Source of the DNA: Ignavibacteriota bacterium
Lineage (GTDB): Bacteria > Bacteroidota > Ignavibacteria > UBA10030
Reading direction: 5' to 3'
Length of the DNA stretch: 64,000 nucleotides
Assembly: GCA_963701295.1 (NCBI GenBank)
Contig: OY969585.1
Coordinates: 1,760,001-1,824,000 of the forward strand
Shown: positions 28,171 through 53,060 of the stretch, one piece after another
How positions within the stretch are numbered: the stretch's first letter is position 1
Layout: each line of letters starts with the position of its first letter
Position numbers and translations under genes: made by a program
The notes under the pieces: model-generated
Told to the model about the DNA's origin: nothing
Seen by the model: only the letters and a program-made list of their open reading frames with translations
The model's database searches: none

Positions 28171-28189
28171 ATTGAGGAAGAAGTGAAAA

Positions 28190-34328: not shown

Positions 34329-35144
34329 ATGAAAAAAATAAATTATCACGCTTCATTTTTACAAAGTATATATTTTATAATCTATTTAATCCTGTCTTCA
34401 GTCATAATATTTACTCCGATAATAATCACGGGATCTGTCTATATAACAGAAAAATTTATCCTTGATGAAGAAATAGCCGAAGTGTTTCTTCTTTGCATTC
34501 TGTTTTCGCTGAGTATTTTGATATTTAAATTATATAAACAAGAAGCTTTTAAACAAGAAGAATTCATTAAAAAAATGAAAAATGATAAAAAGACGACCGA
34601 GGAAAGGCTTTTTGATTCACTAAGTTATATTGGTAAAGTAAATGTCCAAATTGAAGAAATGAAGTCAATATTTAATACTACGAACACATATCCGGAAACA
34701 AAAAATGATTTTAAAAAAACTTTTCGTTTCCTTAGCGAGCGCGTTCTTGGAATTGTAAATACAAATTGGGCTTTATTGAGAATAATTAACAGCAATACCC
34801 AGAGAACAATCAGCGAGTGCTTTGAAACACGGCAAGGTTTTTCATGTCAGTATCCTCACGTGAGCAATAGAATGATCCTTGAAAAACAACTCATTTCGCC
34901 TTTTACTACAGTCATTTCGAATTCGCAAAATTTAAATATCCTCGTTTGTTGTACTATGCCCATTGATAAAATCAGCAATGATCAACGTGTGTTTATTCAA
35001 GCTATTATAAATGAGATTATTATGCTGTTCATTATTTTAAATTCCTCATATTACAAAAACGGAAATACTATATTTGAAGAAAATATATCTATTAAAAAAC
35101 AGAGTAACAATAATTTATATCCGATGACAGCATATATGCGATGA
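34329..35144 (+). CDS. Hypothetical membrane protein (two N-terminal TM helices)
   Basis: 271-aa AT-rich ORF with hydrophobic N-terminus; no family recognised. Confidence 0.7.
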   Translation: MKKINYHASFLQSIYFIIYLILSSVIIFTPIIITGSVYITEKFILDEEIAEVFLLCILFSLSILIFKLYKQEAFKQEEFIKKMKNDKKTTEERLFDSLSYIGKVNVQIEEMKSIFNTTNTYPETKNDFKKTFRFLSERVLGIVNTNWALLRIINSNTQRTISECFETRQGFSCQYPHVSNRMILEKQLISPFTTVISNSQNLNILVCCTMPIDKISNDQRVFIQAIINEIIMLFIILNSSYYKNGNTIFEENISIKKQSNNNLYPMTAYMR

Positions 35145-35537
35145 TGGTTCGTTTGAAGTAACCTCGCATATCTTGCTCCTTTCATTACCTTCAAGGGTAT
35201 ATGAAGCTGTCTCTTTTATCGGACAGCCCTTGCATTTCAACGAATGCTTGTCGCATTATCGAATTAATTTGTGGTAAGATCTTTCAAAAGGATAATGGAA
35301 TCCAATGAAAATAATTCTCAACAGATTAACTTTACCTTACCCGTATAAAAAGATCTGAAAGAGGTACGGGAAGTGTTGAATGAGACATGAGACATGGACT
35401 TTTTAGAATTATATTGGATAAAACGAAAATATAAATAATTTCAGTTTCAATATGTTCGATTCTGTAAAATAGCACATATGAGAAAATAATTCACATGCGC
35501 TCTGGTTTGGAGGTTCATCTCGGGGTCATGAAAGAAA

Positions 35538-35660
35538 AGAGGCCGAAACTTTTCAGAATCGGCCTTTCGTGTAGCGGGGCCCAAAGTATAGTCTAAAGAA
35601 ACTTCTTAACATATAGTTAAATCGTATAAATTCTTCTCTGGTAAAGCTTTATACGGTTTC
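35538..35660. mobile_element. att-like junction: hairpin, tRNA-Met 3'-end copy and inverted repeat
   Basis: AGGCCGA..TCGGCCT hairpin, then GTAGCGGGG at 35571 (same as the tRNA 3' end on this strand), then AAATCGTATAAA..TTTATACGGTTT. Confidence 0.5.
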
Positions 35661-36134
35661 ATTGTCGAATTATGCACATTTAAAATTCTACAAAGACACT
35701 AAATCCTGTCATTTATTAGAACGTTAAGTGAGGTCAAGATGATTTTGGACCATGGTAATATGGTGCATTATTCGCTTGTAAACATTGACGAAATAGATAA
35801 AAGTTGGCAAATGGAACTAGACCCGTCGTTTACTGGTCAACCTTCAAAAAACCGGGAGACAAAATAGGAAAGTACTGACGCGATAAATTGACAAGAGGTT
35901 GGTGAAATTACGACAGATATTGTCCTCGAAACCTTTTAAGTTTAAATAGACACTCAGGAGGGATACCGTGCTGTGCAGAATGAGTCGGCAAGATGAAATA
36001 GAGACAGAGGAAGAATATAAAACTCGCAGAAATCTATTATATGAACAAGCAGAGAATACGAGTATCGACGGATGGAGAAGTATAAAAGAGAAAGACGCCA
36101 CGCACATTGTCCAACAGAAAGGAAGGAAAGAATT

Positions 36135-36638
36135 ATGAAGAACGAGAATAAGGAGATTGTAAAACAGTATATCGAAAACATCTTGAATACTGGAAATGCC
36201 GAAGATCTATCGACGTTTATTTCACCCCACTATACCGAGGTCCTTAACAATAAGAGGTATCATCTGGGGATTAAAGGAATCCGGAAAAAAATCACGGGAA
36301 TCCGCGAGATATATCCCGATTTGAAATTATCCATCGATGTACAAATTACCGAAGGCGACTGGGTTGTTACGAGCTACATCATGAACGGAACACAGGTCGG
36401 TAGCTGGATGGGTATCAGACCGACAGGAAAAACCGTTGAAGTCCGGGGAGTCAATATAGACAGGGTCGTTGATAGTAAAATAACGGAACATGAAAGCAGC
36501 ACGGATCTCGTTGATCCGTTAATAGAATTCAATCAACACTCGCAACACTCAACACATTGGATCAAAGATAATTTGCAGAATAAATTTGTTGCAAAGAATG
36601 AAGATGTTAAGACCATATGCGAAACGGAGGTTGCATAA
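36135..36638 (+). CDS. SnoaL-like ester cyclase
   Basis: ENKEIVKQYIE..YPDLKLSI...EGDWVV...GTQVGSWMGIRPTGKTVEVRG..RVVDSKITE. Start at ATG 36135 after an RBS. Confidence 0.85.
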   Translation: MKNENKEIVKQYIENILNTGNAEDLSTFISPHYTEVLNNKRYHLGIKGIRKKITGIREIYPDLKLSIDVQITEGDWVVTSYIMNGTQVGSWMGIRPTGKTVEVRGVNIDRVVDSKITEHESSTDLVDPLIEFNQHSQHSTHWIKDNLQNKFVAKNEDVKTICETEVA

Positions 36639-36660
36639 CCATAAATACTTTTCCTTCTTT

Positions 36661-36693
36661 TCAAAGGTGTTTGCGAAAGCAGGCACCTTTTGA
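36661..36693 (+). terminator. Intrinsic terminator after the SnoaL-like gene
   Basis: AAAGGTGTTTGC-gaaa-GCAGGCACCTTTT. Confidence 0.7.
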
Positions 36694-36882
36694 ATCGTCA
36701 CCCCAATATTCCATCACACAAAACCACTCAAGAAAAACAAGTGCATTTAATGCTTGATTTTGGGTTGAGGATGCCGCATATTTGCACTGTACGAGATAAG
36801 AGAGGAGAGTTAACTTATCTCGTTTTCACCAGACGCCGACAGGACGAATCTTTTTTATCTAGACAAGGTGAAGAGCGCTGAA

Positions 36883-36912
36883 TTGACAAGGGAAGTGAGA
36901 AATAGTTAGGCT
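36883..36912 (+). promoter_or_regulatory. Candidate cassette promoter (Pc-like)
   Basis: TTGACA (36883)-18 bp-TAGGCT (36907), pointing into the array. A second candidate is TTGATT-17-CATATT at 36754-36782. Confidence 0.5.
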
Positions 36913-36979
36913 GCAATATGCAGTCTAACACACAAAAAAGCGTATTAGGCTGCGATATGCAGTCTAATCAGAGTTAGCC
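36905..36979 (+). mobile_element. attI-like primary recombination site
   Basis: Two direct 23-bp near-palindromes TTAGGCTGC(A/G)ATATGCAGTCTAA, then GTCTAAT-caga-G|TTAGCC. GTTAGCCAGCGCAA is the exact reverse complement of TTGCGCTGGCTAAC at the end of cassette 1. No attC stem lies upstream. Confidence 0.7.
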
Positions 36980-36995
36980 AGCGCAAAGGATTATA

Positions 36996-37589
36996 ATGAG
37001 AAACGCTATCATAGTAATGCTAAATATTGTTTTTCTTCAAGGTCTTTTCAGTCAAGACTCAACCAAAATCATGGATATGGAACTATCACCAAAAGGCGAT
37101 ATTGAACTCCAATATGTAGATAGCGATTCTTGCCTTTGCATGGATGTCTGGTTGATTAGTCAAGAAGATTCAACACAGAAATTTATATTAGATTCTGCTA
37201 CTACTCTAGGTACAAAGTATTTCTTTTCTCCAGATGAGAATTGGATAGCTGCAAATTTTGAATATGTTAGCAATTACAGAACGGTTATTCTTTTTAAACG
37301 TGTTGAAGGTATTCGGTACAAGAAAGTCGAGAATGCTCAAATTTATGAAAAAGGTGTCGAATTTATGGCGAAGATCAGGCATCTTCGTAATGTTCCAGAA
37401 TTTGGACATAGTATAGCTGAGATATTAAAATGGTCACCAGACTCGAAATCATTTCTTTTCAAAATTCGTGCTTGGGATAACAATCAGGGATTCACCATTA
37501 GGGATTGGACAAGTATATTTAATGTAGAATTACTTTCGGTCTCAGGAGATAAACGAAATAATGGTTGGCTTATTCATGAGCGTAAATAA
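36996..37589 (+). CDS. Cassette 1: secreted hypothetical protein
   Basis: Signal peptide, RBS directly after the GTT site, WD40/TolB-like FSPDENW and WSPDSK motifs. Confidence 0.75.
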   Translation: MRNAIIVMLNIVFLQGLFSQDSTKIMDMELSPKGDIELQYVDSDSCLCMDVWLISQEDSTQKFILDSATTLGTKYFFSPDENWIAANFEYVSNYRTVILFKRVEGIRYKKVENAQIYEKGVEFMAKIRHLRNVPEFGHSIAEILKWSPDSKSFLFKIRAWDNNQGFTIRDWTSIFNVELLSVSGDKRNNGWLIHERK

Positions 37590-37601
37590 TTGATTTGCGC
37601 T

Positions 37602-37760
37602 GGCTAACCAGCGGCTCAAACTGACCGAATGAGCGTCGGTACGTTAAGCATGGCGCGTAGATGTGTAGATGTTTAATAATAAACTTTTCAGCATGGACTT
37701 GTTTCGTTTAATGTGTTTTGAAAGTTATCAGTGCGGCAGCTTAGCCGCCATCCGTTAGGC
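37602..37760 (+). repeat. attC site 1 (159 bp)
   Basis: GGCTAAC..GCGGCTCAAACTG.....CAGCTTAGCCGC..GTTAGGC. Confidence 0.9.
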
Positions 37761-37784
37761 GCCACCATGTAAAAGAAGTGACGA

Positions 37785-38456
37785 ATGCTCATACAATTAC
37801 TAAATCAAATGGTAGCCTGTAAACAGTGTAGTTTTACCGACGAGAAGTATCCCCCATTGGCTCCAGTCCGATTAGCAGATGTTGCAAAGGTTATGCTTAT
37901 TGGGGAAAATCCTTCGTGGGAATTTGGTCAACGTGTTCCATTTGATGGAATTACATACAGTGGGCAGGCACTTCATAAGTATTATATTGTTCCAATGAAG
38001 AAGGCTTTCAATTTTAGAGAGACTGATTTTTGGATAACTGATCTTTTCAAATGCCGTTATAGAAAAGAAGTGCTTCGCAATAAACGTGTTATGCAGAAAT
38101 CAATCTTCGACAATGCCAAATTGTGCGCAACAAGTTGGTTGCTCGCCGAAATCAAGTTTATTCAACCCATAGTCATTTTAACACTTGGAGATAAAGAAGT
38201 CTACCAAAGACTCCGTAAAATCTTTAACTTATCGTCGTGTCCTACAAAATTCGCAGAAGCAGCATACAGGTTACATTCTATTGTTATAGGAGGACACAAA
38301 TGCCAACTTTTTCCTACTTGCCATCCAGATATTTCTTATTTAAATCCCCGTAAACGCGATGCGAGTTGTAAATGGTCAAAACTGCACCAAAATCAATTTA
38401 TTGAAGTTTTGAAGACAGCGTCGATATTCGGCGATACAAGGATGTTGTCATTGTGA
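37785..38456 (+). CDS. Cassette 2, gene A: uracil-DNA glycosylase superfamily protein
   Basis: CxxC, VMLIGENP, ITDLFKC, LxxEIxxIxP.VILTLG and HP motifs of Fe-S UDG families. Confidence 0.8.
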   Translation: MLIQLLNQMVACKQCSFTDEKYPPLAPVRLADVAKVMLIGENPSWEFGQRVPFDGITYSGQALHKYYIVPMKKAFNFRETDFWITDLFKCRYRKEVLRNKRVMQKSIFDNAKLCATSWLLAEIKFIQPIVILTLGDKEVYQRLRKIFNLSSCPTKFAEAAYRLHSIVIGGHKCQLFPTCHPDISYLNPRKRDASCKWSKLHQNQFIEVLKTASIFGDTRMLSL

Positions 38457-38495
38457 CTAAAGAAATTCTATATTCTTTTGCAAGGAGATAAGAAA

Positions 38496-39209
38496 ATGAA
38501 GAGACTTCCAGTTTGCATATATATTGTCTTAATGCTTGCAATTGTCAATCTCAATTGCCAAAATAAGCATGATCAAACTACATTTAAAAATCCAGCACAA
38601 ACATATGAATCTCACACAGAATCTGACTCAGCTAACATGAGTGATGTACCACATGATGTCAGACGTGTTTTTCTCGGCAACGGCTACAGAGAAGCACAAT
38701 GGGGTATGTCCACAAAACAAGTGTCTGATTTACTTCGCGCAAAGATACTTTATCATGACAAAGTCATCACAGACGGAGATATTTTCATCTCTTATAATCT
38801 TGGTGGTGGAAAGTCGGTTACCTGTTATTTTTATAAGAATCTTTTCTATCGAGCAGAGTATTCACCTTCATTCAAAGATGGCGATGAGATTGCTGGTGAA
38901 GCAGTTCTTCACGGTCTGACAGATAAGTATGGTCAGCCGAGACAAATAGGGGGAATGGTAAACGCATGGACAGAATCCCCGCTCATAGTGTACCAATGGG
39001 ATGATGATAGTACTGAAATCAGGTTCCAGATGTGGGATCCTGAGCCACTAAAACGAGCTGGTGGTCTTTATCCAAGCTCGACGATAGCAGTCTCTTACAA
39101 ATCGAAATTTATTTCCATAAAGAAAGAATCGGAGTTGTCGGAATTAAACGACAAAGTGCGCAAGAAATCCGTGCAAGAAAAATTGAAATCTTTAAAAAAT
39201 GACTTCTGA
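38496..39209 (+). CDS. Cassette 2, gene B: probable lipoprotein
   Basis: MKRLP..AIVNLNC lipobox-like signal; GYREAQWGMS motif; RBS AGGAG. Confidence 0.7.
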   Translation: MKRLPVCIYIVLMLAIVNLNCQNKHDQTTFKNPAQTYESHTESDSANMSDVPHDVRRVFLGNGYREAQWGMSTKQVSDLLRAKILYHDKVITDGDIFISYNLGGGKSVTCYFYKNLFYRAEYSPSFKDGDEIAGEAVLHGLTDKYGQPRQIGGMVNAWTESPLIVYQWDDDSTEIRFQMWDPEPLKRAGGLYPSSTIAVSYKSKFISIKKESELSELNDKVRKKSVQEKLKSLKNDF

Positions 39210-39237
39210 TTTTATTCATTTTGATAAACATGGCGGC

Positions 39238-39393
39238 GCCTAACCAGGCGCTCAAGCTGACGGAATGAGCGTAGGTACGTTAAGCATGGCGAGTATAGGT
39301 TAGTACAAAATTGAAAGTTATCAGCGTGAACTCAGTTCGTTTAGTGAATTATGAAAATTATCAGCGCCGCAGCTTAGCGCCCATCCGTTAGGC
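39238..39393 (+). repeat. attC site 2 (156 bp)
   Basis: GCCTAAC cag GCGCT[C]AAGCTG[A]CGG ... CCGCAGCTTAGCGC ccatcc GTTAGGC. The two unpaired bases give the canonical extrahelical G and T on the bottom strand. Confidence 0.93.
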
Positions 39394-39592
39394 CGCGCGT
39401 GCGGTGCGCAAGTTATGTATTTTATTTTTATAGAAAGTTTTGTTGTTACGAGTGTTTGAGTGCTGTCTACGTCGTGCCGTTAAAATTGAATATTCGTTTG
39501 CACCGCACGCGCAAGTATCTATTTCGTTGAGTACATTTTGAAAGTATCGGTCGTTGTCTTTCGACCAATGGTGATACAATTAAAATCTGTTG
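39394..39592. other. Cassette 3: ~200-bp cassette with no convincing ORF
   Basis: Bounded by GTTAGGCC and GGCCTAAC; contains a 13-bp perfect inverted repeat. Confidence 0.7.
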
Positions 39593-39745
39593 GCCTAACC
39601 AAGCAACTCAAGCTGACAGAATGAGCGTTGGTACGTTAAGCATGGCGCTTAGAAATTATTGTTTAAAAGATATTATAATAAACTTATTTTGTATTCAGCA
39701 ACTTGCGGCATATCAGCGCTGCAGCTTAGTTGCCGTCCGTTAGGG
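39593..39745 (+). repeat. attC site 3 (153 bp)
   Basis: GCCTAAC..GCAACTCAAGCTGACAG...CTGCAGCTTAGTTGC..GTTAGGG, with compensatory changes relative to attC2. Confidence 0.92.
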
Positions 39746-39755
39746 CGCAAATCAA

Positions 39756-40301
39756 ATGATGCTTTATATTATTGCTATACTATTTGTTATTAACTTTATT
39801 TCATTCCCTATATTTGCGATAATACTTATGCGTCCATCGAAAGTTCCTGCTCGCATAGATAAAGCAACTGGGAATTGGATAATCTACTATGGCTCACGTT
39901 ATAGGAAATTGGCAATAATTTATGTAGTGCAAATTCCGTTTTGTTTGCTTTGTATATTTTATTCGCTTATTGGTTCGTTCAAAATCGATGCTTTTATTTA
40001 TGTCTACCTTCCAGTAGTTATGTGTATTTATAGTGGGATAGGAATGTTTGTTGCTACATTCCGATATCATATAGAACTTACTCAGGATGCTATCATTGAA
40101 AATCGTATAATAATGAAACCTAGAACTATAATTTGGAATGATGTTAAAAGTATCTTAAACATAGGCTACTCTATTCGTATAACCTCTGTTGATGGACAAA
40201 TAATTCGCATTTCTAAATTAATGAATGGGTGCTCAACTTTTATTGATGTAATAAAAACAAAATTACCTCAATCAATAATCAAAACTATAAAAATTCTCTG
40301 A
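39756..40301 (+). CDS. Cassette 4: membrane protein, possible bacterial PH-like C-terminal domain
   Basis: Three hydrophobic segments, then IELTQDAI...RTIIWNDVKSI. Confidence 0.7.
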   Translation: MMLYIIAILFVINFISFPIFAIILMRPSKVPARIDKATGNWIIYYGSRYRKLAIIYVVQIPFCLLCIFYSLIGSFKIDAFIYVYLPVVMCIYSGIGMFVATFRYHIELTQDAIIENRIIMKPRTIIWNDVKSILNIGYSIRITSVDGQIIRISKLMNGCSTFIDVIKTKLPQSIIKTIKIL

Positions 40302-40307
40302 TTTGCG

Positions 40308-40464
40308 CCCTAACCAGGCGCTCAAGCTGACGGAATGAGCTGGGTGCAATTTACATGGCGAGCAATGTATTTGTTCTTAATAATTCAGTTGGTAGCGTGA
40401 ACTCGTTTCGTTTTGTGCAACTTGATAATTATCAGCGCCGCAGCTTAGCGCCGGTCCGTTAGAA
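40308..40464 (+). repeat. attC site 4 (157 bp)
   Basis: CCCTAAC cag GCGCTCAAGCTGACGG...CCGCAGCTTAGCGC..GTTAGAA. Confidence 0.92.
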
Positions 40465-40553
40465 CGCACAAAGAACCAATATCTTTTGTACGTATCTATC
40501 GGCAATATATTCGCTTTGTAACAGTCATGCTACCAGATTGAAAGTGATGAGTA

Positions 40554-42956
40554 ATGAAATACCAAAACATAAGAGAAGAAGAACTAAAAAATAAAGTAGC
40601 TCAGGATTATTTTTGGCTTTACGACTGCTCCAAAATTATTGGCAATGTTGATTTTTGCGTTTGTATGATTGAAAGCAATAAGAAATTATTTGAACAAGAA
40701 TCATTATTGTGGGCAGAAGCAAAAAAAGGTTCTTCGGATATTTATAATTCTATTGTTCAACTGATATTAACCATCGGCAAGGCGCGGACTTTTGATAAAT
40801 ATCTCCCGCCTTCGATGTTGGGTGCTTTCGATTGTGAGAAAATAGCCTTCATTCCGTACAATGAAATATATGATGTGTTTTATTTAAACGACTTTAATTG
40901 GAATGTTACACCCTCAAACTATGAATCAAGAGAGTTCAAATTAATTCACAATAAAGTCAAGACCATCATCGATACAAAAACCCTGCTTTATTATTTTGAA
41001 GATGATGACAGAGACTTAAAGAGGTTTATTAAAAGCAATTTTATTGTTGGCAAGTTTGGTTTAACAAAAATCAAAATTGACAAGAACAATTTTATGGTGA
41101 TTTACAACAAGTGGTTACAAGCCGTAAAGCCGACCATTGCAGTAAATTGGGACATTGCAAAAAAGAGTGGAATTATTGATGGAGATTTTTACTTAGCCGA
41201 TTTACTTTCACAGGAAAACAATACTCTAAAAGAAAAATTATTTGTTTTACTAAGACATGATCATTATGAACTTGATAGAAAATTTGATGAGTCAGGAATG
41301 TTTAGCAGTAAGCGCACCGACTTTTCTGACAAGCAGGTGGCGCACACACAATTTTGGAATAAATACGAGAGACCGCCAAAAGAAGAATATTGGGACTACA
41401 TTGTAGAGCGTAGAGATTTACTCGTTCCTCAAGATGTTAGAGAAAGAAAAGGAAGCTTTTTTACTCCTCAAAATTGGGTAGAACTTTCTCAAAAATATCT
41501 GACAGATGCTTTAGGCGAAGATTGGCAAGATGAATATTATGTTTGGGATTGTGCAGCGGGAACAGGGAATCTAATTCATGGTCTTACAAACAAATATAAT
41601 TTATGGGCTTCTACATTAGATAAGCAAGATGTTGAAGTAATGCATGACAGAATAAAGAACGGTGCGAACCTATTAGACGATCATGTGTTTCAATTTGATT
41701 TTCTAAATGATGATTTTGCAAAACTCCCGAAATCACTGCAAAATATAATAAAGAACCCTGCGAAACGAAAAAAAATTGTTGTTTATATTAACCCGCCATA
41801 TGCTGAGGTGTCTAGTATAGGGAAAAAAGGAAAAGCAGGTGTGAATCAATCGAAGGCACATGATAAATATTCTGATAAAGTCGGAACAGCAGGCAGAGAA
41901 GTTGCCATAATATTTCTTGCTAGAATTTATGACGAATTAAATGGTTGTTTAATTGCTGAGTTTTCAAAGTTGAAAGCATTACAAGGTTCGGCGTTTAATG
42001 ATTTTCGCAATTATTTCAAAGCCGAACTACTCAAATCGTTTGTTGTTCCTGCTTGGACATTTGATAATGTCAAAGGAAAATTTCCAATAGGATTCAAAGT
42101 ATGGAATACGGATAACAAAATACCGTTTAAAAGAACACGCTCAGATGTTTACAATGACAATGGTGAATTAATTGGCAAAAAAACATTTTCAGTAATTGAA
42201 AAAAGTAACTTTATAAATAAATGGATAAGCCAGTACAAGGTCAAGAATAATTTTATAGGTTTTTTAGCTGGAACAAATGGAAACGACTTCCAACAAAATG
42301 GAATCGTTTACATCCTAAATAAAAAAGAGCAGATGGCTAATCCGCGTGGTATATGGATTAATGCAAATAATCTTATTCCTGTTTCAATTTACTATGCAGT
42401 TAGAAGATGCATGGAACAAACATGGCTTAATGATAGAGACCAATTCTTATTTCCACAAAAAGGATGGGAAAACGATAAAGAGTTTCAGAATGATTGTCTT
42501 ATGTTCACTCTATTTAACACTCATATTCGATCACAATATGGAGTAAATAATTGGATTCCTTTTACCGAGCAAGAAGTCAATGCCAGGGAGAATTTCGATA
42601 GTAATTTTATGAGCCAATATATAAATGGCAAATTAAAAAATGAACAACATGGCGACTTGTTTGGTTCACAAAAACAGAGTCTAACACCCCTATCGTTTTC
42701 TTCAGAAGCGAATGAAGTGTTTAATGCCGCCCGCAAATTATGGAAATACTATCATCATCAACCGTATTGTAATGTAAATGCTTCCTTGTATGACATTAGA
42801 GAACATTTTCAAGGTCGAAACGATGATGGGAAAATGAATAATAAAAGTATTGATGAAACTTATATGAAACTCATCACTGGCTTGCGAGATAAATTGAAAC
42901 AACTTGCCATGAAGATAGAACCCAAAGTGTATGAGCATGGATTCTTAAAAGTATGA
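40554..42956 (+). CDS. Cassette 5: fused endonuclease/N6-adenine methyltransferase (type IIG-like restriction-modification protein)
   Basis: N-terminal E..VDF...WAEAK PD-(D/E)xK-like motif; KGSFFTP, VWDCAAGTGNL (SAM binding), YINPPY (catalytic). Confidence 0.75.
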   Translation: MKYQNIREEELKNKVAQDYFWLYDCSKIIGNVDFCVCMIESNKKLFEQESLLWAEAKKGSSDIYNSIVQLILTIGKARTFDKYLPPSMLGAFDCEKIAFIPYNEIYDVFYLNDFNWNVTPSNYESREFKLIHNKVKTIIDTKTLLYYFEDDDRDLKRFIKSNFIVGKFGLTKIKIDKNNFMVIYNKWLQAVKPTIAVNWDIAKKSGIIDGDFYLADLLSQENNTLKEKLFVLLRHDHYELDRKFDESGMFSSKRTDFSDKQVAHTQFWNKYERPPKEEYWDYIVERRDLLVPQDVRERKGSFFTPQNWVELSQKYLTDALGEDWQDEYYVWDCAAGTGNLIHGLTNKYNLWASTLDKQDVEVMHDRIKNGANLLDDHVFQFDFLNDDFAKLPKSLQNIIKNPAKRKKIVVYINPPYAEVSSIGKKGKAGVNQSKAHDKYSDKVGTAGREVAIIFLARIYDELNGCLIAEFSKLKALQGSAFNDFRNYFKAELLKSFVVPAWTFDNVKGKFPIGFKVWNTDNKIPFKRTRSDVYNDNGELIGKKTFSVIEKSNFINKWISQYKVKNNFIGFLAGTNGNDFQQNGIVYILNKKEQMANPRGIWINANNLIPVSIYYAVRRCMEQTWLNDRDQFLFPQKGWENDKEFQNDCLMFTLFNTHIRSQYGVNNWIPFTEQEVNARENFDSNFMSQYINGKLKNEQHGDLFGSQKQSLTPLSFSSEANEVFNAARKLWKYYHHQPYCNVNASLYDIREHFQGRNDDGKMNNKSIDETYMKLITGLRDKLKQLAMKIEPKVYEHGFLKV

Positions 42957-43036
42957 TTCATATCAGTTGAAAATAATTTCACACGAGTTATAGCGAATAT
43001 AAATATCAAATCAGACAAGAAAAAATACTTTGTGCG

Positions 43037-43185
43037 TTCTAACCAGGCGCTCAAGCTGACGGAATGAGCGCGGGTACAAAAGTCCGCGCGAAGAAGGTAA
43101 GGTTTAAAATTAGAAATGGGTTCGGCGCGAGGAAGGTACAATTGGAAGGTCTTAAGTACCGCAGCTTAGCGCCCATCCGTTAGGC
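43037..43185 (+). repeat. attC site 5 (149 bp)
   Basis: TTCTAAC cag GCGCTCAAGCTGACGG...CCGCAGCTTAGCGC ccatcc GTTAGGC; different central sequence. Confidence 0.92.
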
Positions 43186-43273
43186 AACACGAAATAGCAT
43201 TTACAAATATTGCATTAGCTTAACTTATATTGATGATACAGATTATTTAATGTAACCTTAAAAATACACTTCG

Positions 43274-43879
43274 ATGAAATATCTTCTGATAATTGGGATG
43301 ACTCTTGGCATTGCAGCAGTTTGGATGTTTTACAATAAACCTGAACTCGAAAAGTTTAATTATTCGATAACATTTCCCTGGAAAGTTGAAAATAAAAATA
43401 TATTAGATTGCAGTATTGAGATAAATTCTGAGAATTCAGAACTGTATGTGAACGATAATATTTATTTTAGAGTTAAAATATTCAATTATAATTCTGACCT
43501 ATTTATAAGACAACTTAAGGATAGAAATATATTATTTACAATGAGTGGATTGGAACCGACAGAACATATTGATTTAATTTATAATCAAGATGAAAATATT
43601 TTTAAAGGCAGCGGTTTCCTTAAATTTAAATTTGCAGGTAATTATTCATTTCAAACTGGTTATGATTCTAATGATAAAATTACTCCATCATTAGGATTAT
43701 TTTCATCTAATCTAACTATTCCAATATTACCAACTCTTCAGAAATATCAAGTTGAATTAAACGATAGATTATTTTTTCAGAGTAAATTAATTCTGGTTTT
43801 GACAATTGTTACACTTACTTTAACTTTGATGCAATTATTTAATATGAGAAACAAAGCTAATAAACGCGATAAAGCATAA
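43274..43879 (+). CDS. Cassette 6: hypothetical protein, hydrophobic at both termini
   Basis: 201-aa, very AT-rich ORF between attC sites. Confidence 0.65.
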   Translation: MKYLLIIGMTLGIAAVWMFYNKPELEKFNYSITFPWKVENKNILDCSIEINSENSELYVNDNIYFRVKIFNYNSDLFIRQLKDRNILFTMSGLEPTEHIDLIYNQDENIFKGSGFLKFKFAGNYSFQTGYDSNDKITPSLGLFSSNLTIPILPTLQKYQVELNDRLFFQSKLILVLTIVTLTLTLMQLFNMRNKANKRDKA

Positions 43880-44012
43880 GGGTTTCGGATGTATCCAGTC
43901 TCTATTTACTGTATTATGGATTTTAAATAATGGATATAAACGCAACTCGACTCCCATTTACTTTTCATGATGCAGACAGCATATTTGTAATTGTAATATT
44001 CTACACTGTGTT

Positions 44013-44171
44013 GCCTAACCAGCAACTCAAGCTGACGGAATGAGCGTTGGTACGTTAAGCATGGCGAATAGAGGTTCAGATGTTTAATAATAAACTTTTC
44101 AGCATGAACTTGTTTCGTTTTCAGCAACTTGCGGGTTATCGTTGCCGCAGCTTAGTTGCAATCCGTTAGGT
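44013..44171 (+). repeat. attC site 6 (159 bp)
   Basis: GCCTAAC ca GCAACTCAAGCTGACGG...CCGCAGCTTAGTTGC..GTTAGGT. Confidence 0.92.
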
Positions 44172-44210
44172 GCAATTGATTTTACAATTTTTTAAAAAGG
44201 AGGAGACCTT

Positions 44211-46286
44211 ATGAAGAAAATATTATTTGTGATTAATAGTTTAATACTTTTGTCAACGACAACTTTCTCTCAATGGGTTCAAACCAATGTGCCTGGAGGT
44301 GGATTTATTACATCTTTCGCATACATTGATGCAAATATTTTTGCCGGAACAATTGAATCAGGTATTTTCCTTTCTACAAATGGAGGGACAGATTGGGTGC
44401 CTGTAAATTCGGGATTGAATAATCTTTATATTCGTGGGCTTGCAGCTAATGGAAAAAATCTTTTTGCCAGTACTTGGCAGGGTATGTTTCTTTCTACGGA
44501 TAATGGCAAAAACTGGACATCCATTAATACAGGGTTAACGCCAGGGGTGTTTTGGACTCCTTTCGCGAGTGATACAAATATTTTTCTTACGACTCTTGAC
44601 GAAGGAGTTTTCTTGTCAACTAATAATGGCGCAAGTTGGACTACGGTCAATACGGGATTAACCAATTTACGTATTAATGCTTTTACTAAGAAGGATTCAA
44701 ATCTTTTTGCAGGCACAGACGGGGGTCTATTTCGTACTACAAATAATGGCACGAGTTGGGTTCAACTCGATATGGGATTAACAAATACCGGTATTAATGC
44801 TCTTATGGCAATTGGTTCGAATCTTTATGCCGGAACCAGCAATGGAGATATTGTTTTTTCTACTAATAATGGTGCGACCTGGAATAAAAGCATCATTGAG
44901 CCATATACACATGTTCATACTTTTGCAGTTCGTCTCAGTGGAACAGGAGACACCATACTATTTGCAGGTACAAATGGGAACGGGGTTTTAAAATCCACAA
45001 ATAACGGCGCAAGCTGGACGAGAATAAATACAGGATTATCAGCTACAGATGTATCCGCTTTATTAGAGTTTGGAACAAGCCTCTTGGCAGGAACGGAAGT
45101 TGGTGTTTTTCGCACTGACAACGATGGCGCAAATTGGAATGAAAGCGACTCTGGCTTATCGGCAACGGAAGTCCATACGTTTTATACAAAGGGTTCAAAT
45201 ATTTACGCCGCTACTTGGTCGAGCGGAGTATTTGTTTCCACCAATGATGGTTCGAATTGGACACGCCTAAACGCTGGAAGAAATCTATACAATATTTCAT
45301 CACTTGTCGTAAGCGATTCGAATATCTTCGTTGGAACTTTAGGCGATGGTATATTTATTTCCTCCGATAACGGTGCTACATGGTCAAATCCAGGATTGAC
45401 ATTTATTTATACTCTTGCTATTTCCGGTTCATACATTTTTGCTGGGACAACTAGCGGTGTCTTTCTTTCCACCGACAATGGTGGTAGTTGGAATGCGTCC
45501 AATAATGGATTAACAAATATGCAAGTATGGAAATTAACAGCATACAATAATAATATTTATGCCGGGACCGACAGTGGCGGTGTTTTTGTTTCGAGCAATA
45601 ATGGTTTAAGTTGGACGTCTCTTGGGGTAGTATCGCCGAATTATTACGTGAACTCGATAGTAGTTCGTGATACAAATATATTTGCAGGAATTTATAGAGG
45701 TGGTGTTTCCCTTTCTACGAACAATGGCACAAGTTGGAATACCGTTAATACCGGCTTGACTGATTTGAATATTTTTGACCTTGCTGTCAGCGGTAAAAAT
45801 ATATTTGCCGGAACTCAGTTGGGAGGGATTTTCCTTTCAACTGATAATGGAACTAGTTGGGCTTCTGTAAATTCCGGATTGGCAAATTCTCCAGTATATG
45901 CTCTTATGGTGATTGATGGAGACCTCTTTGCTGGAACTAGTGGATCTACTGGATCCGTTTGGAAACGGTCTCTCTCTGAGATGATTACCACTGAAGTGAA
46001 AGATAATCTTAATAAGGTTCCTACTCGTTTTGCTCTTGAACAAAATTATCCGAACCCATTCAATCCGAGTACGACTATCTCATTTAGTCTCCCATCAAAA
46101 TCTTTTGTGATGCTGAAAGTATTTGATATTATGGGTAGAGAAGTCACAACTCTTATCAATAAAGAGTTATCTGCTGGAAATTATAATCAGGAATGGAATG
46201 CGATAAATATGTCAAGTGGAATTTATTTTTATCGATTGCAAGCCGGAGCGTTTGCTGAAACAAAAAAACTTGTTCTACTGAAATAA
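44211..46286 (+). CDS. Cassette 7: T9SS-sorted BNR/Asp-box beta-propeller protein
   Basis: Signal peptide, many FAGT..GVFLSTNNGxSW repeats, LEQNYPNPFNPST...KKLVLLK. Confidence 0.9.
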   Translation: MKKILFVINSLILLSTTTFSQWVQTNVPGGGFITSFAYIDANIFAGTIESGIFLSTNGGTDWVPVNSGLNNLYIRGLAANGKNLFASTWQGMFLSTDNGKNWTSINTGLTPGVFWTPFASDTNIFLTTLDEGVFLSTNNGASWTTVNTGLTNLRINAFTKKDSNLFAGTDGGLFRTTNNGTSWVQLDMGLTNTGINALMAIGSNLYAGTSNGDIVFSTNNGATWNKSIIEPYTHVHTFAVRLSGTGDTILFAGTNGNGVLKSTNNGASWTRINTGLSATDVSALLEFGTSLLAGTEVGVFRTDNDGANWNESDSGLSATEVHTFYTKGSNIYAATWSSGVFVSTNDGSNWTRLNAGRNLYNISSLVVSDSNIFVGTLGDGIFISSDNGATWSNPGLTFIYTLAISGSYIFAGTTSGVFLSTDNGGSWNASNNGLTNMQVWKLTAYNNNIYAGTDSGGVFVSSNNGLSWTSLGVVSPNYYVNSIVVRDTNIFAGIYRGGVSLSTNNGTSWNTVNTGLTDLNIFDLAVSGKNIFAGTQLGGIFLSTDNGTSWASVNSGLANSPVYALMVIDGDLFAGTSGSTGSVWKRSLSEMITTEVKDNLNKVPTRFALEQNYPNPFNPSTTISFSLPSKSFVMLKVFDIMGREVTTLINKELSAGNYNQEWNAINMSSGIYFYRLQAGAFAETKKLVLLK

Positions 46287-46295
46287 TGCAATTGC

Positions 46296-46426
46296 ACCTA
46301 ACCAGGCGCTCAAGCTGACGGAATAAGCTGAGTGCTATTTACATTGCGTTTATAAATAATGAACTCTCTTTGTTGGCAGTAAGTTGAGGTTTCCGTCCGC
46401 CGCAGCTTAGTTGCCATCCGTTAGGC
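46296..46426 (+). repeat. attC site 7 (131 bp)
   Basis: ACCTAAC cag GCGCTCAAGCTGACGG...CCGCAGCTTAGTTGC..GTTAGGC. Confidence 0.9.
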
Positions 46427-46438
46427 GGTCAACACTCC

Positions 46439-47038
46439 ATGCAAAATTCTGAATTCGATATTGCTTTTGAGATCATCCGGAACTCCTCTCACAACAATGT
46501 GTATTTGGTTGGGATCGATGGTTTAGGAGGATCTGGGAAGAGTACGTTGGCAGAAAGAATTCGCCAACACCTAGAGACCGCACAATTAACCGTAACTATA
46601 GTTCACAATGATGATTTCTATTTGCCCTCTGCGATTCGGAGTAAACTTTCGCCACAACTCAAGCCCATTGGCGCTGACTTTGATTGGATACGTCTCCGCG
46701 ATCAAGTTCTTGTGCCATTACGCTCAAATCAGATCGCAGACTATGTCAGGTATGATTGGCCATCGGATCGATTAGCTGAGTGTCATAAAATCCAACCATA
46801 TGGAATTGTACTTATCGAAGGCGTTTATTCCACACGTGCAGAACTTCGTGATCTGTACGATTATCGCGTTTGGGTAGACTGTCCAAGTGAGTTACGTCTC
46901 AGTAGAGGGGTCGCTCGTGATAGAACTGTTGCTCTTTCTCTTTGGGTGGACGAATGGATGCCGGTGGAAGAACGATATTACAACGAGCATCGTCCTGATA
47001 CCTTTGCTCATGTTATGGTAAACAGTGCTGCCGCCTAA
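46439..47038 (+). CDS. Cassette 8: uridine kinase-like P-loop kinase
   Basis: GIDGLGGSGKST, HNDDFY, FDWIRL, YDW, IEGVYS; its stop codon lies inside the attC inverse core (GCCTAAC). Confidence 0.85.
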   Translation: MQNSEFDIAFEIIRNSSHNNVYLVGIDGLGGSGKSTLAERIRQHLETAQLTVTIVHNDDFYLPSAIRSKLSPQLKPIGADFDWIRLRDQVLVPLRSNQIADYVRYDWPSDRLAECHKIQPYGIVLIEGVYSTRAELRDLYDYRVWVDCPSELRLSRGVARDRTVALSLWVDEWMPVEERYYNEHRPDTFAHVMVNSAAA

Positions 47039-47186
47039 CAAGGCGCTCAAGCTGACGGAATGAGCTCACTGCAATTTGCATGGCGAGCAGAGGTCGGTAC
47101 AAAATGGAAAGAACCAGCATGAACTTGTTTCGTTTTGTGTATATTGAAAATTATCAGTGTGGCAGCTTAGTGCCCATCCGTTAGGC
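47033..47186 (+). repeat. attC site 8 (154 bp)
   Basis: GCCTAAC aag GCGCTCAAGCTGACGG...GGCAGCTTAGTGC ccatcc GTTAGGC. Confidence 0.9.
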
Positions 47187-47227
47187 GCAATTGATTTTTA
47201 CAATTAGTAAAATACAGAGGAGGTGTT

Positions 47228-49331
47228 ATGAAAAACATTTTATTTATTGTTGCTATTTTATTGCTTTTATCAGCGGAATCTTTTTCTCAATGGGTTCAAA
47301 CCACCGCGCCGGGAGGCGGATATATCACATCGTTCGCTTACAACGGCACAAATATTTTTGTCGGAACATATGAAGCCGGTATTTTCCTTTCTACGAATAA
47401 TGGTACAGATTGGACGCCTGTAACTTCGGGAGTGCTTTATCCCGGTATTCGCGCACTTGCAACTATTGGAACAAATCTTTTTGCTGGTACCTGGGGCGGT
47501 ATGTATCTTACTGTGGATAGCGGCAAAAACTGGACATCCATTAATGCAGGATTAACGACAGGTGCGATCTGGGCACTTATAGCGAGTGGTACAAACCTTT
47601 TTGCTGGGACTGATGATAAAGGAGTCTTTCTGTCTACTAATAACGGCACAAGTTGGACTGAGGTCAGCACGGGATTGACAAATTTACGTGTTAGGTCTTT
47701 TGCTCTCAAGGATACAAATCTTTTTGCAGGCACAGACGCGGGCGTCTTTCGTTTTACCAATAATGGCACGAGCTGGACTGAAGTCAACACAGGATTGACG
47801 CATACGTATATTACAGCTCTTATTGCAAGCGGAACGAATCTTTTTGCCGGTACCAGTTCCGGAGATTTTTGTATTTCTACGGATAATGGAGATACGTGGA
47901 ACACCACCAACTTCATGGATCCATATTATTATGCTATAACTTCCTTTGCAGTTCATACAAATGGTACTGGCGATACACTACTCTTTGCCGGTGATGCGGG
48001 AGGCCATGGGGTTTTTCTCTCCACAAACAATGGTGCAAGCTGGGCCAAAGTCAGGTACTGGGTTAACTGCCATTTCTGTATTTGCGTTAATGGAATATGG
48101 AACAAGCCTCTTTGCGGGAACGGAAATCGGAGTTTTTCTCACGAACGATAATGGCGCAAATTGGAATGAACGAGACTCTGGCCTGTCAGCAACGGAAGTC
48201 CATGCATTTGGTACAAAAGGCTCAACTCTTTATACTGCTACATGGAATAACGGAATTTTCGTTTCCATAAACGATGGATTGAATTGGACGCATGTCAATA
48301 CCGGAATGAACATATACAGTATTTCATCACTTGCATTAAGTGGTTCAAATATCTTTGTTGGATCTTGGGGTGAAGGTTTCTTTATTTCTACCGATGATGG
48401 TAGCACATGGTCAAATAGCAATAGAGGACTGACTGATAGAAATATTCAAACTCTTGCACTCTCTGGATCAAATCTATTCGTAGGGACCCAAAGTGACGGT
48501 ATTTTCATGTCCTCAGACAATGGTCTAAGCTGGAATGCTGTCAATAACGGATTATCAAATTTGGATGTGTTTAGCTTAACAGTATTCAATACCAATATAT
48601 ATGCCGGGGCGAACAATGGCGAGGTTTTTGTTTCGAACAATAATGGTTCAAGTTGGACATCCCTTGGTGTTTTAGCACCGAATTATCAAGTGCGGTCTAT
48701 TCTCATTTCCGATACAAATATTTTTGCCGGAACTCTAGGCAAAGGTGTTTTTCTTTCTACAAACAACGGCACAAGCTGGAATGCTGTTAGTACCGGTTTG
48801 GTCGATTCGAATGTTTTTGTTCTTGCTGTCAGCGGTAAAAATTTATTTGCAGGAACCTGGCTCGGGGGTGTTTTTCTTTCTACGAACAATGGAACTAGTT
48901 GGGCTTCTGTAAATACTGGATGGCCTAATACTCCGGTATATGCTCTTAAAATCCTTGATGGAAATCTCTTTGCTGGAACAAGTTGTGGAGCAAGTAGCGG
49001 AGCTATTTGGAAACGACCTATCTCTGAGATGATTACATCTGTCGGGCAAGCGTCTTCTCAGCTACCAAAGATTTATAACCTTCAACAGAACTATCCGAAT
49101 CCGTTCAATCCAAGCACATCAATTTCATTTAGTCTACCATCAAAATCTTTTGTCACGCTAAAAGTATTTGATATTATGGGTAGAGAAGTTGCAACAATTG
49201 TCTCTGAAGAAATGTCGGCAGGAAGTTACTCGAGACAATGGAATGCGGCAAATATGTCAAGCGGAGTATATTTCTATAGAATACAAACGGGCCTATTTAC
49301 CGAAACAAAAAAATTACTATTGCTTAGATAA
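47228..49331 (+). CDS. Cassette 9: T9SS-sorted BNR beta-propeller protein, paralog of cassette 7, with one apparent +1 frameshift at ~48054
   Basis: ORFs 47228-48151 and 47946-49331 are colinear with 44211-46286. Removing one G from CAGGTACT restores WAKVSTGLT. Confidence 0.85.
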
Positions 49332-49340
49332 TACAATTAC

Positions 49341-49356
49341 GCCTAACCAGGCGCTC
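49341..49356 (+). repeat. Truncated attC site 9 (left arm only)
   Basis: GCCTAACCAGGCGCTC then abrupt loss of similarity. Confidence 0.8.
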
Positions 49357-49383
49357 CATATATATAAGAAAAGTTTTTTATTT

Positions 49384-49992
49384 ATGACTTCCAACGACAG
49401 CAAAAAAGATATTGAAAGTTTCAACCGCTGGTCTCGCACTTATGACAACTCTTGGATTCAACGATATGCCATTCGCGTGCATGCAGAAATGCTCGATGTT
49501 GTTACCCACGAAATTGCTACGCCGAAGGCCGTCCTTGATATCGGATGTGGGACTGGGCAGCTGTTGCACAAAGCTCGTGCGCTTTACCCGTCGGCGCAAT
49601 TATTTGGTATTGACTCAGCGGAAGGCATGGTTGAACTCGCTCGTGGTCGGATACCATCTGCCACAATTTATTTGGGCGCGGCAGAGTCTTTGCCGCTGTC
49701 TGATTCCTCCGTCGATGTCGTGTTAAGTAGCATTTCATTTCATCATTGGAGTGACCAATTTGCAGCGCTCCGAGAGATAAGTCGTGTTCTTTGTCAAGGG
49801 GGCTGCTTCTGCTTGGCTGATATATCCATGCCAGTATGGCTCGCGAAATTCATTCAACATATCAAGGTAAAGAGTCCCGTAGCGACGAGTCAATTCTTCG
49901 AAGAAGCAGGATTGCAAGTTAAAATTCAGCATCGTACCTTCACACGCTTTGTTTGGTTAACTCTTGGTGTCAAGGGATCGAGAAATGTTTGA
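49384..49992 (+). CDS. Cassette 10: class I SAM-dependent methyltransferase
   Basis: VLDIGCGTG, GIDSAEGM, AESLPLSDSSVD, SFHHW. Start set at ATG 49384; the ORF-track extension overlaps the previous gene. Confidence 0.9.
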   Translation: MTSNDSKKDIESFNRWSRTYDNSWIQRYAIRVHAEMLDVVTHEIATPKAVLDIGCGTGQLLHKARALYPSAQLFGIDSAEGMVELARGRIPSATIYLGAAESLPLSDSSVDVVLSSISFHHWSDQFAALREISRVLCQGGCFCLADISMPVWLAKFIQHIKVKSPVATSQFFEEAGLQVKIQHRTFTRFVWLTLGVKGSRNV

Positions 49993-50039
49993 TTATCATC
50001 GGACATATCTGACAAATACATATTGGACTTAATGCTGCT

Positions 50040-50226
50040 GCCTAACCATTTTAAAAAGGAAAGAGTCAAGTACATAATATACTCCCGATGCATCCCGCAA
50101 AATCGGAAAGGGAATGAACTTGATTCGTTTTCAACAATTTGAAAGTTACTAGCGCGGCGGTCCCGCTGTACGGGATCCTCAATTTGATCTTCGATCAAAT
50201 CGGGACTTAGTGCTGATCCGTTAGGC
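50040..50226 (+). repeat. Degenerate attC site 10 with inserted palindromes
   Basis: GCCTAAC at 50040; TGAACTTG..TTCGTTT..TTGAAAGTTACTAGCGCGGC remnant; CTTAGTGC..TCCGTTAGGC at the right end. Confidence 0.65.
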
Positions 50227-50351
50227 CGCCTCAAGAAAATATCTTACCGTGTTAAAGGAATGATACCGCTCGAAACACGCTTGAGAATGCAAATGTTGAA
50301 TAAGAAATAGTTGTTCAACACGTTATTCTCGGTATTTTCCAATTCATCCAG

Positions 50352-51106
50352 ATGGAAAGGCATATAATTCAAATCTCTGTCCGCTGGTATGGCGAGCTCA
50401 ATGACAATCTTCCAGCGGAACAACGGGGTACGTCACCTCTCTTCATCGAATTGAATCTGGCGTAGCAATTGGTGAATTTGTGTCCCAATTTGGAATTCCA
50501 TTCGATCGCATTGATCTTGTACTTGTAAACGGCGTCTCGGTGGATTCTAGACATCAATTGAAGGATAACGATCGTATCGCCTTATTTCCGGTATTCGAAA
50601 GTTTCGATATTGCTTCTGTCACGAAAGCTCGAGAGCATCCTCTTCGTCAGCCGAAATTCATTCTTGATGTTCACCTCGGAAAACTTGCCAATCTTCTTCG
50701 AATGCTCGGATTCGACACACTATATCGAAACGATTACACAGACAATATTCTTTGTAGAATTTCTCTTAAGGAGAATCGAACTCTCCTGAGTAAGGATAAA
50801 TCCTTGATCGAAACCGAGAGTCTCACTCATGCATATTTGGTCAGGAATAAAAATTCACGTCTTCAGCTTATTGAAGTTCTCGATCGATTTCAACTTTTCG
50901 CTCTTGCTGCTCCTTTCACACGGTGCATTGAATGCAATTTAACGCTCCAAAAAGTCGATATGGTAAAAATTCTCTCCCGTATTCCCGAAAAAGTGAAGGA
51001 ATGGTGTACCGAATACCAATGGTGCAGTGCTTGCAATAGAATCTACTGGAAAGGCTCCCACTATCAGAAGATGCAGGAATTTATATCGTCTCTTCCTGAA
51101 AAATAG
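50352..51106 (+). CDS. Mut7-C RNase (ubiquitin-like + PIN + Zn ribbon), apparent frameshift at ~50425-50431
   Basis: ISVRWYGELNDNLP (frame from ATG 50352) continues in another frame as FGIP..IDLVLVNG..FILDVHLGKLANLLRMLGFDT..RCIECN..C..CNRIYWKGSH. Confidence 0.85.
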
Positions 51107-51150
51107 TTATACGACAGCAGGTATTTTAAAAGCGGAATTATAAAATCGGA

Positions 51151-51322
51151 GAAGAAATGCCAACAGGAAGTTACTCGAAACAATGGAATGCTGCGAATAT
51201 GTCGAGTGGAATATACTTCTATCGTTTGCGGGTTGGATCATTTACTGAGACGAAGAAACTGATTTTGCTTAAGTAAAGGGCAATTGCACCCAAACCCACC
51301 GGTCAACTCGACAGAATGAGTG
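51151..51322 (+). pseudogene. Relic cassette: last 41 codons of a third T9SS-sorted gene plus a decayed attC left arm
   Basis: [41 protein letters not shown] (51151-51276), then CAATTGCACCCAAAC..TCAACTCGACAGAATGAG, resembling CAATTGCACCTAAC..TCAAGCTGACGGAA at 46290. Confidence 0.75.
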
Positions 51323-51540
51323 TGAGTGTCAAAAGACAAGAGAAATAAATCAGCACATCAAAGTTTTACCCATAAACTAAGAAATCCTCACCGATTTCCA
51401 TCGATGAGGATTCTTCTTTAGACTTAGTAGCGGGGGCCACGCCTACGTTTCACTTCGGCGGGCAGGCAGGATGCCGATTTAAAACAAATCGGCATTTCAC
51501 AAAAAACGTTCAACTTGAATTTAAACCATCCAATTACTAT

Positions 51541-51583
51541 AAAAACAGAAAACCCCAGACAAACTGGGGATTTTCTGTTTTTT
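51541..51583 (-). terminator. Intrinsic terminator downstream of tRNA-Met
   Basis: AAAAACAGAAAACCCCAG-acaaa-CTGGGGATTTTCTGTTTTT. Confidence 0.85.
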
Positions 51584-51584
51584 G

Positions 51585-51657
<73 letters not shown>

Positions 51658-51855
51658 ATCTTTAGTAATTTAATATACAATCATTTTGATGCTCAGTCAA
51701 GGTGCTTTTTACTGCAATCAAAACTCAACTTAATAAAAAGTAAATTTAAATTTGCCTGCTAATCTGTCCTCATACCAGGATTGTGTGATATAACTTTACT
51801 CAAGTGCTATTCACTTGTGACTCTCTCCTGTCGTACCTTCTTGCATTTTCTGTGA

Positions 51856-52998
<1,143 letters not shown>

Positions 52999-53060
52999 AA
53001 ATTCAGAGGTGTTTCTTTCTGCCCGTTGCGACCAACTTCGGGCAGATTGTTATTTTCCAT

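Follow-up and report, generated by a model that had tools for sequence, protein, structure and literature searches.

An attI-headed cassette array without its integrase gene in an uncultured Ignavibacteriota bacterium

How does an array of integron cassettes come by its contents when no integrase gene lies beside it? The question is raised by a 64,000-nucleotide stretch of an Ignavibacteriota genome (GenBank assembly GCA_963701295.1, contig OY969585.1, positions 1,760,001 to 1,824,000; hereafter the window), in which an array of attC recombination sites and co-oriented genes occupies positions 36883 to 51322. By definition – two attC sites at the least, with no intI gene nearby – this array is a CALIN, an attC cluster that lacks an integron integrase, and not a complete integron. 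We argue here that the distant integrase resident in this genome probably serves many attI sites in trans, loading and reshuffling the cassettes of the window array among others.

CALINs and complete integrons are found about equally often, and the former are usually taken as relics or cassette donors, because attI is not searchable in most lineages. In the study of Cury et al. (2016, 10.1101/030866) attI could not be searched for, and intI loss is listed among the origins of CALINs. Their cassettes may be excised and then re-inserted at the attI of an integron (10.1101/030866), and such mobilisation in trans is repeated in later accounts (PMC11389934, PMC9668308, 10.1101/2025.06.18.660453). 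Integrons have already been reported in Ignavibacteriae (PMC9024848). The names attached to gapA relatives put our host in the FCB group, and a place in Ignavibacteria, as in the first-pass annotation, is plausible. The genome of this uncultured host allows a test of whether intI-less arrays keep a working attI: it has a single integrase, attI sites of three types, and cassettes of which exact copies occur in arrays far apart.

One integrase gene and its attI platforms

The genome is a single contig of 3.64 Mb, 99% complete (coordinates prefixed C1 below). A genome-wide search for IntI, suggested by the first-pass annotation of the window, found one intact gene, the only match over the TIGR02249 cut-off: C1:3566706-3567665, encoding 319 residues without stops, divergent from its own array, with 453 bits against a cut-off of 265 and covering model positions 1-313 of 315. 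As read from the translation against the consensus, the catalytic motifs and the IntI-specific insertion are presumably all present. This intact intI, the nearest there is, lies 1.77 Mb from the window array, whose head contains the following features:

36905..36979, + strand: attI; two palindromes with boxes at 36905, 36923, 36944 and 36962, a 4-nt spacer and the crossover point G|TT at 36973
36730..36837, - strand: frameshifted slice of a type-B intI (gene nucleotides 132-237), 81% identical to the intact intI of relative G010
36889..36903, - strand: piece of the resident intI, 15 nt identical, joined to attI at GTT
36754..36782, + strand: candidate cassette promoter, TTGATT-N17-CATATT, inside the intI slice, with a similar motif in five other remnants
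36883..36912, + strand: second, weaker candidate promoter, TTGACA-N18-TAGGCT, across the junction

The first-pass annotation had supposed that an attI was retained, and this is borne out: window positions 36905-36972 are identical at 66 of 68 positions to the sequence between the resident intI and its first cassette, and the first window cassette, W1, begins at the G|TT at 36973, its start and end being complementary over 15 nt. The statement that the 64 kb contain no tyrosine recombinase stands in that neither PF00589 (14 matches in the genome) nor TIGR02249 matches within the window, but it has to be amended for the short intI remnant at 36730-36837, recognised by an intI DNA profile with E=1.1e-13. 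In the window, then, attI adjoins remnants of intI and no intact gene. Of the two options once offered, loss of intI and service in trans, both find support – the former in the remnants at 36730-36837 and 36889-36903, the latter in the intact intI elsewhere.

The 15-nt piece has only three copies in the genome (in the window, at a second platform, G, and inside intI), each followed by GTT, and has no match within three mismatches at that place in the intI genes of the closest relatives. The window junction would be most simply explained by the loss of 352 bp, from a GTT within intI to the outer box of attI, which removed the leader together with the 5' end of intI; either IntI or microhomology may have brought it about. 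The window platform and platform G have a 175-bp mosaic leader in common, 94% identical; it was at first read as a single intI fragment with a 100-bp insertion, a reading given up when relatives showed two fragments from different intI lineages. The middle intI slice recurs at five other places in the genome (profile E 2.6e-9 to 0.17), as well as before intI-less attI sites of relatives, and the recurring slices carry a TTG(A/C)TT-N17-(C/G)ATATT motif. Since the Pc promoter of class 1 integrons is embedded in intI1 (PMC8946536), the window slice, too, has likely been kept as a cassette promoter, as judged from this motif; a sigma-70 consensus scan listed neither of the two candidates.

The genome harbours ten attC arrays, seven of which – the window array included – are headed by the same attI. 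The further intI-less arrays with this attI start at C1:224104, 2464753, 2834172 and 3172114 and, with a half site (platform G), at 3446594; four of these five still have the intI-attI leader, in part or in full, with 73-75% identity to that of the resident integron, and it stops at the start of intI or close by. Four intI-less attI copies that were aligned are 91-100% identical and carry the attI variant of this genome, not that of G001 or G010. Arrays B, H and the start of C have no recognisable attI head.

Across the genus, IntI proteins form three groups, A, B and C, about 60% identical between groups, and our genome also has five type-B and one type-C attI, each without intI. Non-cognate pairs of attI and IntI recombine poorly (PMC8946536). 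The intI-less attI sites of the resident type are followed by 26, 9, 29, 10, 31 and 5 attC matches and those of types B and C by 1, 2, 1, 0, 0 and 2 (six against six, p=0.001, albeit with sites that are not independent and with the intI-bearing array, two degenerate type-A sites with 14 and 0 attC matches and a coreless type-B match at C1:3346894 omitted).

Some further observations concern these platforms. The attI cores of types A and C have 4 nt between the inner boxes and those of type B have 5 nt; all use the same attC family. A repeat of 150-190 bp stands directly before three attI platforms and one in G009, its places including C1:2834337-2834486, 3446774-3446959, 2387601-2387756 and four more. 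A 3' fragment of intI (45 residues, 98% identical, at C1:581744) is found in C1:581736-582118, where what looks like an island ends, next to an incomplete copy of tRNA-Glu.

Cassette exchange and rival explanations

The evidence for movement comes from cassette units that recur without a single mismatch in different intI-less arrays: A11 and D10 (1968 bp), A7 and D21 (436 bp), and D14 and F7 (460 bp). In all three pairs the neighbours differ, as do the upstream attC arms, and at either end the identity breaks off no more than 5 nt from G|TT; two of the pairs contain no insertion sequence (IS). Arrays E and F have an intI-less junction in common (92% identical, and found in G009 at 89-95%) and no cassette in common beyond IS and sorting-domain-type similarity. 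As this junction occurs also in G009, and as D14 and F7 are exact copies, F would have lost its intI before a divergence of about 8% and taken up a cassette afterwards. Similarly, the window platform and platform G share their intI-less leader and no cassette beyond sorting-domain similarity. The intI-less arrays of this genome have, on good comparative evidence, apparently received cassettes, and recent loading may have taken place at the window attI as well.

What is observed – an attC array with its attI, one intact intI and five more intI-less arrays behind the same attI – can be arranged into a stepwise mechanism. A platform would have been copied from the resident integron lineage and, as the junction suggests, would have lost the intI 5' end and leader in the 352-bp deletion; it stands behind a piece of a different intI, the putative source of its cassette promoter. 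Such platforms would then move on tRNA-anchored islands. The final step, IntI-like copying of cassettes between intI-less arrays with exact G|TT boundaries, is observed for A, D and F and would extend to the window array.

Several findings weigh against service in trans. No window cassette is exactly copied elsewhere, the nearest being W3 at 93-95%, and the intI-bearing array closely shares no cassette except the IS with the others. The attC of A11 and D10 is interrupted by an IS, which should hinder its folding. The greater conservation of attI relative to its leader was once considered proof of continued use and then dropped, because complete integrons of other species show a like contrast (attI 96%, leader 77%), so that attI conservation alone cannot be dated to after the loss of intI. 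Three relatives have two intact intI genes, so intI may have been lost recently at some platforms. The cognate pattern fails in G009, which has a type-A IntI and type-B arrays of 5, 3, 1 and 1 attC matches beside type-A arrays of 6, 1 and 1, and in G006, where a type-C IntI coexists with a type-B array of at least six attC. Finally, no rearrangement was seen in the reads of this organism: three DNA runs (shares 0.06-0.08) and no RNA run were listed for this sequence, and at 85% likeness the DNA runs gave mostly relatives' contigs, with unusable joints, including one that skips 35570-51584 and has a 28-nt side.

One alternative is a frozen relic – a complete integron that arrived loaded on a tRNA-Met island and then lost intI, leaving attI unused and the array to decay and lose cassettes. 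The loss of intI has been proposed as a source of CALINs (10.1101/030866), and the intI remnants upstream, the decayed tail, frameshifted W9 and IS scar described below, the missing exact copies of window cassettes and the loaded arrays behind non-cognate attI in G006 and G009 all agree with it. However, the eight proximal attC sites and attI are intact while the intI remnant is eroded, the junction shared with platform G is followed by different cassettes, and zero-mismatch copies do occur in other intI-less arrays of this genome, and we regard such a relic as unlikely. It is barely credible that a rearrangement split this array off the main integron, or that off-target (attG) insertion gave rise to it: the main integron retains its own attI and array, the window array has a separate full attI, and attG sites differ from attI, attI1 having no significant insertion rate into genomes (10.1101/2022.09.11.507474), even though both are proposed routes to CALINs (10.1101/030866; PMC8618304; 10.1101/2022.09.11.507474) and three arrays here lack a recognisable attI head.

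Cassettes might also spread without IntI, if the attC repeats or IS copies, being alike, underwent homologous recombination or gene conversion with one another. Homology is on offer in some 130 similar repeats and in nine IS copies that are nearly identical, and the A11/D10 unit includes an IS, but the abrupt ends of identity at G|TT, the differing upstream arms and the two IS-free pairs make this route very improbable. Service in trans by the resident integrase thus remains our preferred account. More tentatively, the genome might be viewed as hosting a distributed integron, in which one integrase would serve at least six promoter-plus-attI platforms that would themselves move, without an integrase, on tRNA islands. 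A cassette network over many loci would then take up about 7% of the chromosome and have more than one expressed first position, platforms with a non-matching attI would stall until a matching integrase arrives, and the integrase would be adapted to attC sites of up to about 217 bp with 5- and 8-nt spacers, outside the described range.

Relatives offer further material for comparison. An intact intI is present in 13 of the 16 genomes of the genus. In five relatives picked for their few contigs – draft genomes, from which more intI genes may be missing – the attI core pattern gave 33 matches (3, 7, 8, 10 and 5, against 4, 0, 3, 4 and 0 for the reversed control). Thirty core matches were retrieved, 29 of which gave a score with an attI profile, including four that had helped to build the profiles; five adjoin a full intI and 25 do not. 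Partial intI sequences, one of them very weak, lie beside eight of these 25. Where the relative has a type-B IntI, intI-less type-B attI sites head 15 and 3 attC matches (G002) or 8 (G008).

The array differs in several respects from known systems. CALINs as treated by Cury et al. (10.1101/030866) and Neron et al. (2022, PMC9024848) are defined regardless of attI; most are small (83% with fewer than six sites), and the papers present them as degraded or as donors of cassettes, whereas here a cognate attI is kept and six such arrays, with 5-31 attC matches, apparently receive cassettes. Unlike in the sedentary integrons of Vibrio and Xanthomonas (Loot et al. 2017, PMC5371416; 10.1101/2025.06.18.660453), ten loci and not a single one share the capacity, the genus has three circulating IntI/attI lineages, and the arrays sit in tRNA-anchored islands. 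Extra attI copies are also found in class 1 integrons with tandem attI1 and delta-attI cassettes, where they stay recombinogenic (PMC12901181); those lie inside one mobile integron beside its intI, unlike the separate arrays described here, up to 1.8 Mb away. Our literature search, which covered few subscription papers, brought up no description of a single integrase loading several arrays that lack intI and bear attI. If attI still works in arrays without intI, a genome would have several highly expressed first positions and a cassette load split over many loci.

An unusually long attC family

The attC sites of the window array, measured from RYYYAAC to GTTRRRY, and their decayed counterparts are as follows:

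37602..37760, + strand: attC 1, 159 bp
39238..39393, + strand: attC 2, 156 bp
39593-39745, + strand: attC 3, 153 bp, within cassette W3
40308..40464, + strand: attC 4, 157 bp
43037..43185, + strand: attC 5, 149 bp
44013..44171, + strand: attC 6, 159 bp
46296..46426, + strand: attC 7, 131 bp, arms of two types
47033..47186, + strand: attC 8, 154 bp
49341..49357, + strand: truncated attC, left arm alone
50040..50226, + strand: damaged attC, R'' followed by an IS110-family insertion scar (IS left end 50047-50108)
51288-51322, + strand: decayed attC left arm, within the shared array tail

The first-pass annotation had counted eight intact repeats of 131-159 bp, seven of them at least 149 bp long, and three decayed ones, and both counts are upheld: the window contains eight left and eight right arms, all on the + strand and all within 37602-47186, against means of 0.32 and 0.00 in shuffled versions, in which eight was never attained. 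Inverse core RYYYAAC and core GTTRRRY are present in all eight sites, and the arms match in six, that of W7 being a mismatched chimera and that of W8 pairing partly. All eight cassettes have an R'' that is complementary, over runs of 8-16 nt, to their own start, and in two of eight it is complementary to the start of the next, which argues that these units were once circles and have since been reordered; genome-wide, 326 of 348 positions match the own start and 242 of 348 that of the neighbour.

Further copies of the repeat were likewise found genome-wide: an nhmmer profile gave 179 attC matches (E<0.01), a number that includes some split halves; they fall into ten arrays, while several stand alone. 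Together the arrays span about 255 kb, or 7% of the genome. Cutting at the crossover points yielded 126 units, from which 94 attC were fully parsed with a pattern that favoured the family's own geometry; these are 120 to about 217 bp long (median 159; 92 of 94 exceed 141 bp), with a first spacer of 5 nt in 90 and a second of 8 nt in all 94. An apparent 227-bp site (F10) proved a mis-parse, the longest real ones having 217 bp. Among 88 unique sites, the extrahelical bottom-strand bases are G at position 16 in all 88 and T at position 23 in 85, and paired positions outnumber those in shuffles at sp4 (67 against 42), sp5 (64 against 36), L1 (71 against 53) and m5 (73 against 47), with p<0.001 at each position, related copies not being independent. 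The attC signature with two extrahelical bases and co-varying arms, as first proposed, is in this way corroborated beyond the window. The attC score declines with distance from attI (rho -0.31, 128 matches).

Folding of the bottom strand, proposed as a check, gave a mixed result: R and L boxes are paired with a computed probability above 0.1 in seven of the eight window sites (64 of 94 genome-wide), but whole-site folding energy was not beyond that of shuffles in the three sites tested (z -0.08, -1.54 and -0.43, the first site shortened by 3 nt). Minimum energy is lower for the top strand in seven window sites; the strands are level in that of W5.

Canonical attC sites measure 57-141 bp and have spacers of usually five to six bases (PMC5027507), figures that describe a typical range and not a strict criterion. 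The present family has in common with them the R''/L''/L'/R' boxes and the extrahelical G16 and T23, which six pairs separate (Nivina et al. 2016, PMC5027507; Bouvier et al. 2009, PMC2727003), and differs in its length and its spacers of 5 and 8 nt; three of the five bases in the 5-nt spacer are able to pair. It widens the substrate range assumed by detection tools and recombination models.

At C1:1156307-1166514, an array without recognisable attI head holds two 217-bp attC variants (B3 and B5) with a distinct insert directly after L''. An IS110-family element is always found directly after R'' of this attC family (e.g. L115:823-1917), with 12 left and 11 right ends; nine copies are about 100% identical and two 82%. 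Units without an open reading frame (ORF) of 60 residues number 11 of 126, and ORF-less cassettes with a terminal GC-rich stem are the type most often common to arrays (A, D and F). Of the 84 type IX sorting motifs in the genome, 18 are encoded by these 126 units, one in each of 18.

The tRNA-Met island and its cassettes

The platforms appear to ride tRNA-anchored islands, which in the window are delimited by three features:

51585..51657, - strand: tRNA-Met, the island anchor
35522..35579, - strand: left island boundary, a hairpin with a 9-10 nt copy of the tRNA-Met 3' end
51151..51437, + strand: shared array tail, with sorting-domain fragment, decayed attC arm, hairpin and tRNA-Met 3' piece

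In G009 and G005 the 35522-35579 segment directly adjoins the 3' end of tRNA-Met, and in G010 and G006 the two are close together, which marks 35580-51578 as an insertion. In the tRNA-Met regions of 12 relatives the site is empty in four, contains the tail module in four and is different or cut short in four; the same tail stands beside the tRNA in G001, G002, G012 and G014, with five attC matches and one weak one in G002. It also ends arrays E, F and parts of C, three times with 33-40 nt of tRNA-Met and common sequence beyond, an arrangement that would resemble a joined attP. Further arrays are enclosed by tRNA-Phe, -Arg or -Ser genes and incomplete copies of these genes. The 9-mer of the tRNA end is not enriched by count (13 observed, 11.6 expected), so the argument rests on the longer matches and the empty sites in relatives. 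In window positions 33000-53000, Rfam recognised nothing but tRNA. A further short copy of the tRNA-Met 3' end at window 33324-33334, followed by sequence resembling C1:2440885, may mark an older, outer island boundary.

With a replication origin near 977 kb (from skew and a dnaA-like motif), the attC bottom strand is part of the leading-strand template for the window array and eight of nine others, an orientation that limits excision in sedentary integrons (PMC5371416). The proposal of a sedentary system agrees with this orientation but has to be qualified in that the locus is not fixed, the insertion being absent in the four relatives with an empty site. Array A (C1:224172-261402) is the sole large array against the replication direction, yet has 26 attC matches, 21 of them scoring at least 80.

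The island holds these genes and cassettes:

36996..37589, + strand: W1 gene, 197 residues, no family
37785..39209, + strand: W2 cassette genes, for a protein of the uracil-DNA glycosylase superfamily (223 residues) and one of 243 residues, no family
39387..39738, + strand: W3, ORF-less, 352 bp, with terminal stem; holds attC 3
39756..40301, + strand: W4 gene, 181 residues, no family
40554..42956, + strand: W5 gene, 800 residues, no Pfam, NCBIfam or PADLOC match, methyltransferase-like motifs
43274..43879, + strand: W6 gene, 201 residues, no family
44211..46286, + strand: W7 gene, BNR-repeat protein with type IX secretion sorting domain, 691 residues
46439..47038, + strand: W8 gene, uridine-kinase-like P-loop protein, 199 residues
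47228..49331, + strand: W9, frameshifted W7 paralogue, 74% DNA identity, two reading frames
49168..49992, + strand: ORF for an S-adenosylmethionine-dependent methyltransferase, with the domain in the 3' part; true start probably later
50480..51106, + strand: gene with a Mut7-C RNase domain

Whole-cassette copies of W3, 93-95% identical, occur in arrays A and F (A9 and F5). The Atlas neighbours of W5 are unnamed clusters first and then N6_Mtase/Eco57I at 0.96; as a lead only, W5 is possibly an N6-adenine methyltransferase or Eco57I-like protein, maybe an undescribed restriction-modification protein. The PADLOC search for defence systems gave no match among W1-W6 or W8. To the left of the island, window positions 13378-32358 contain clustered genes for alpha-amylases and other glycoside hydrolases, some of which carry type IX sorting domains.

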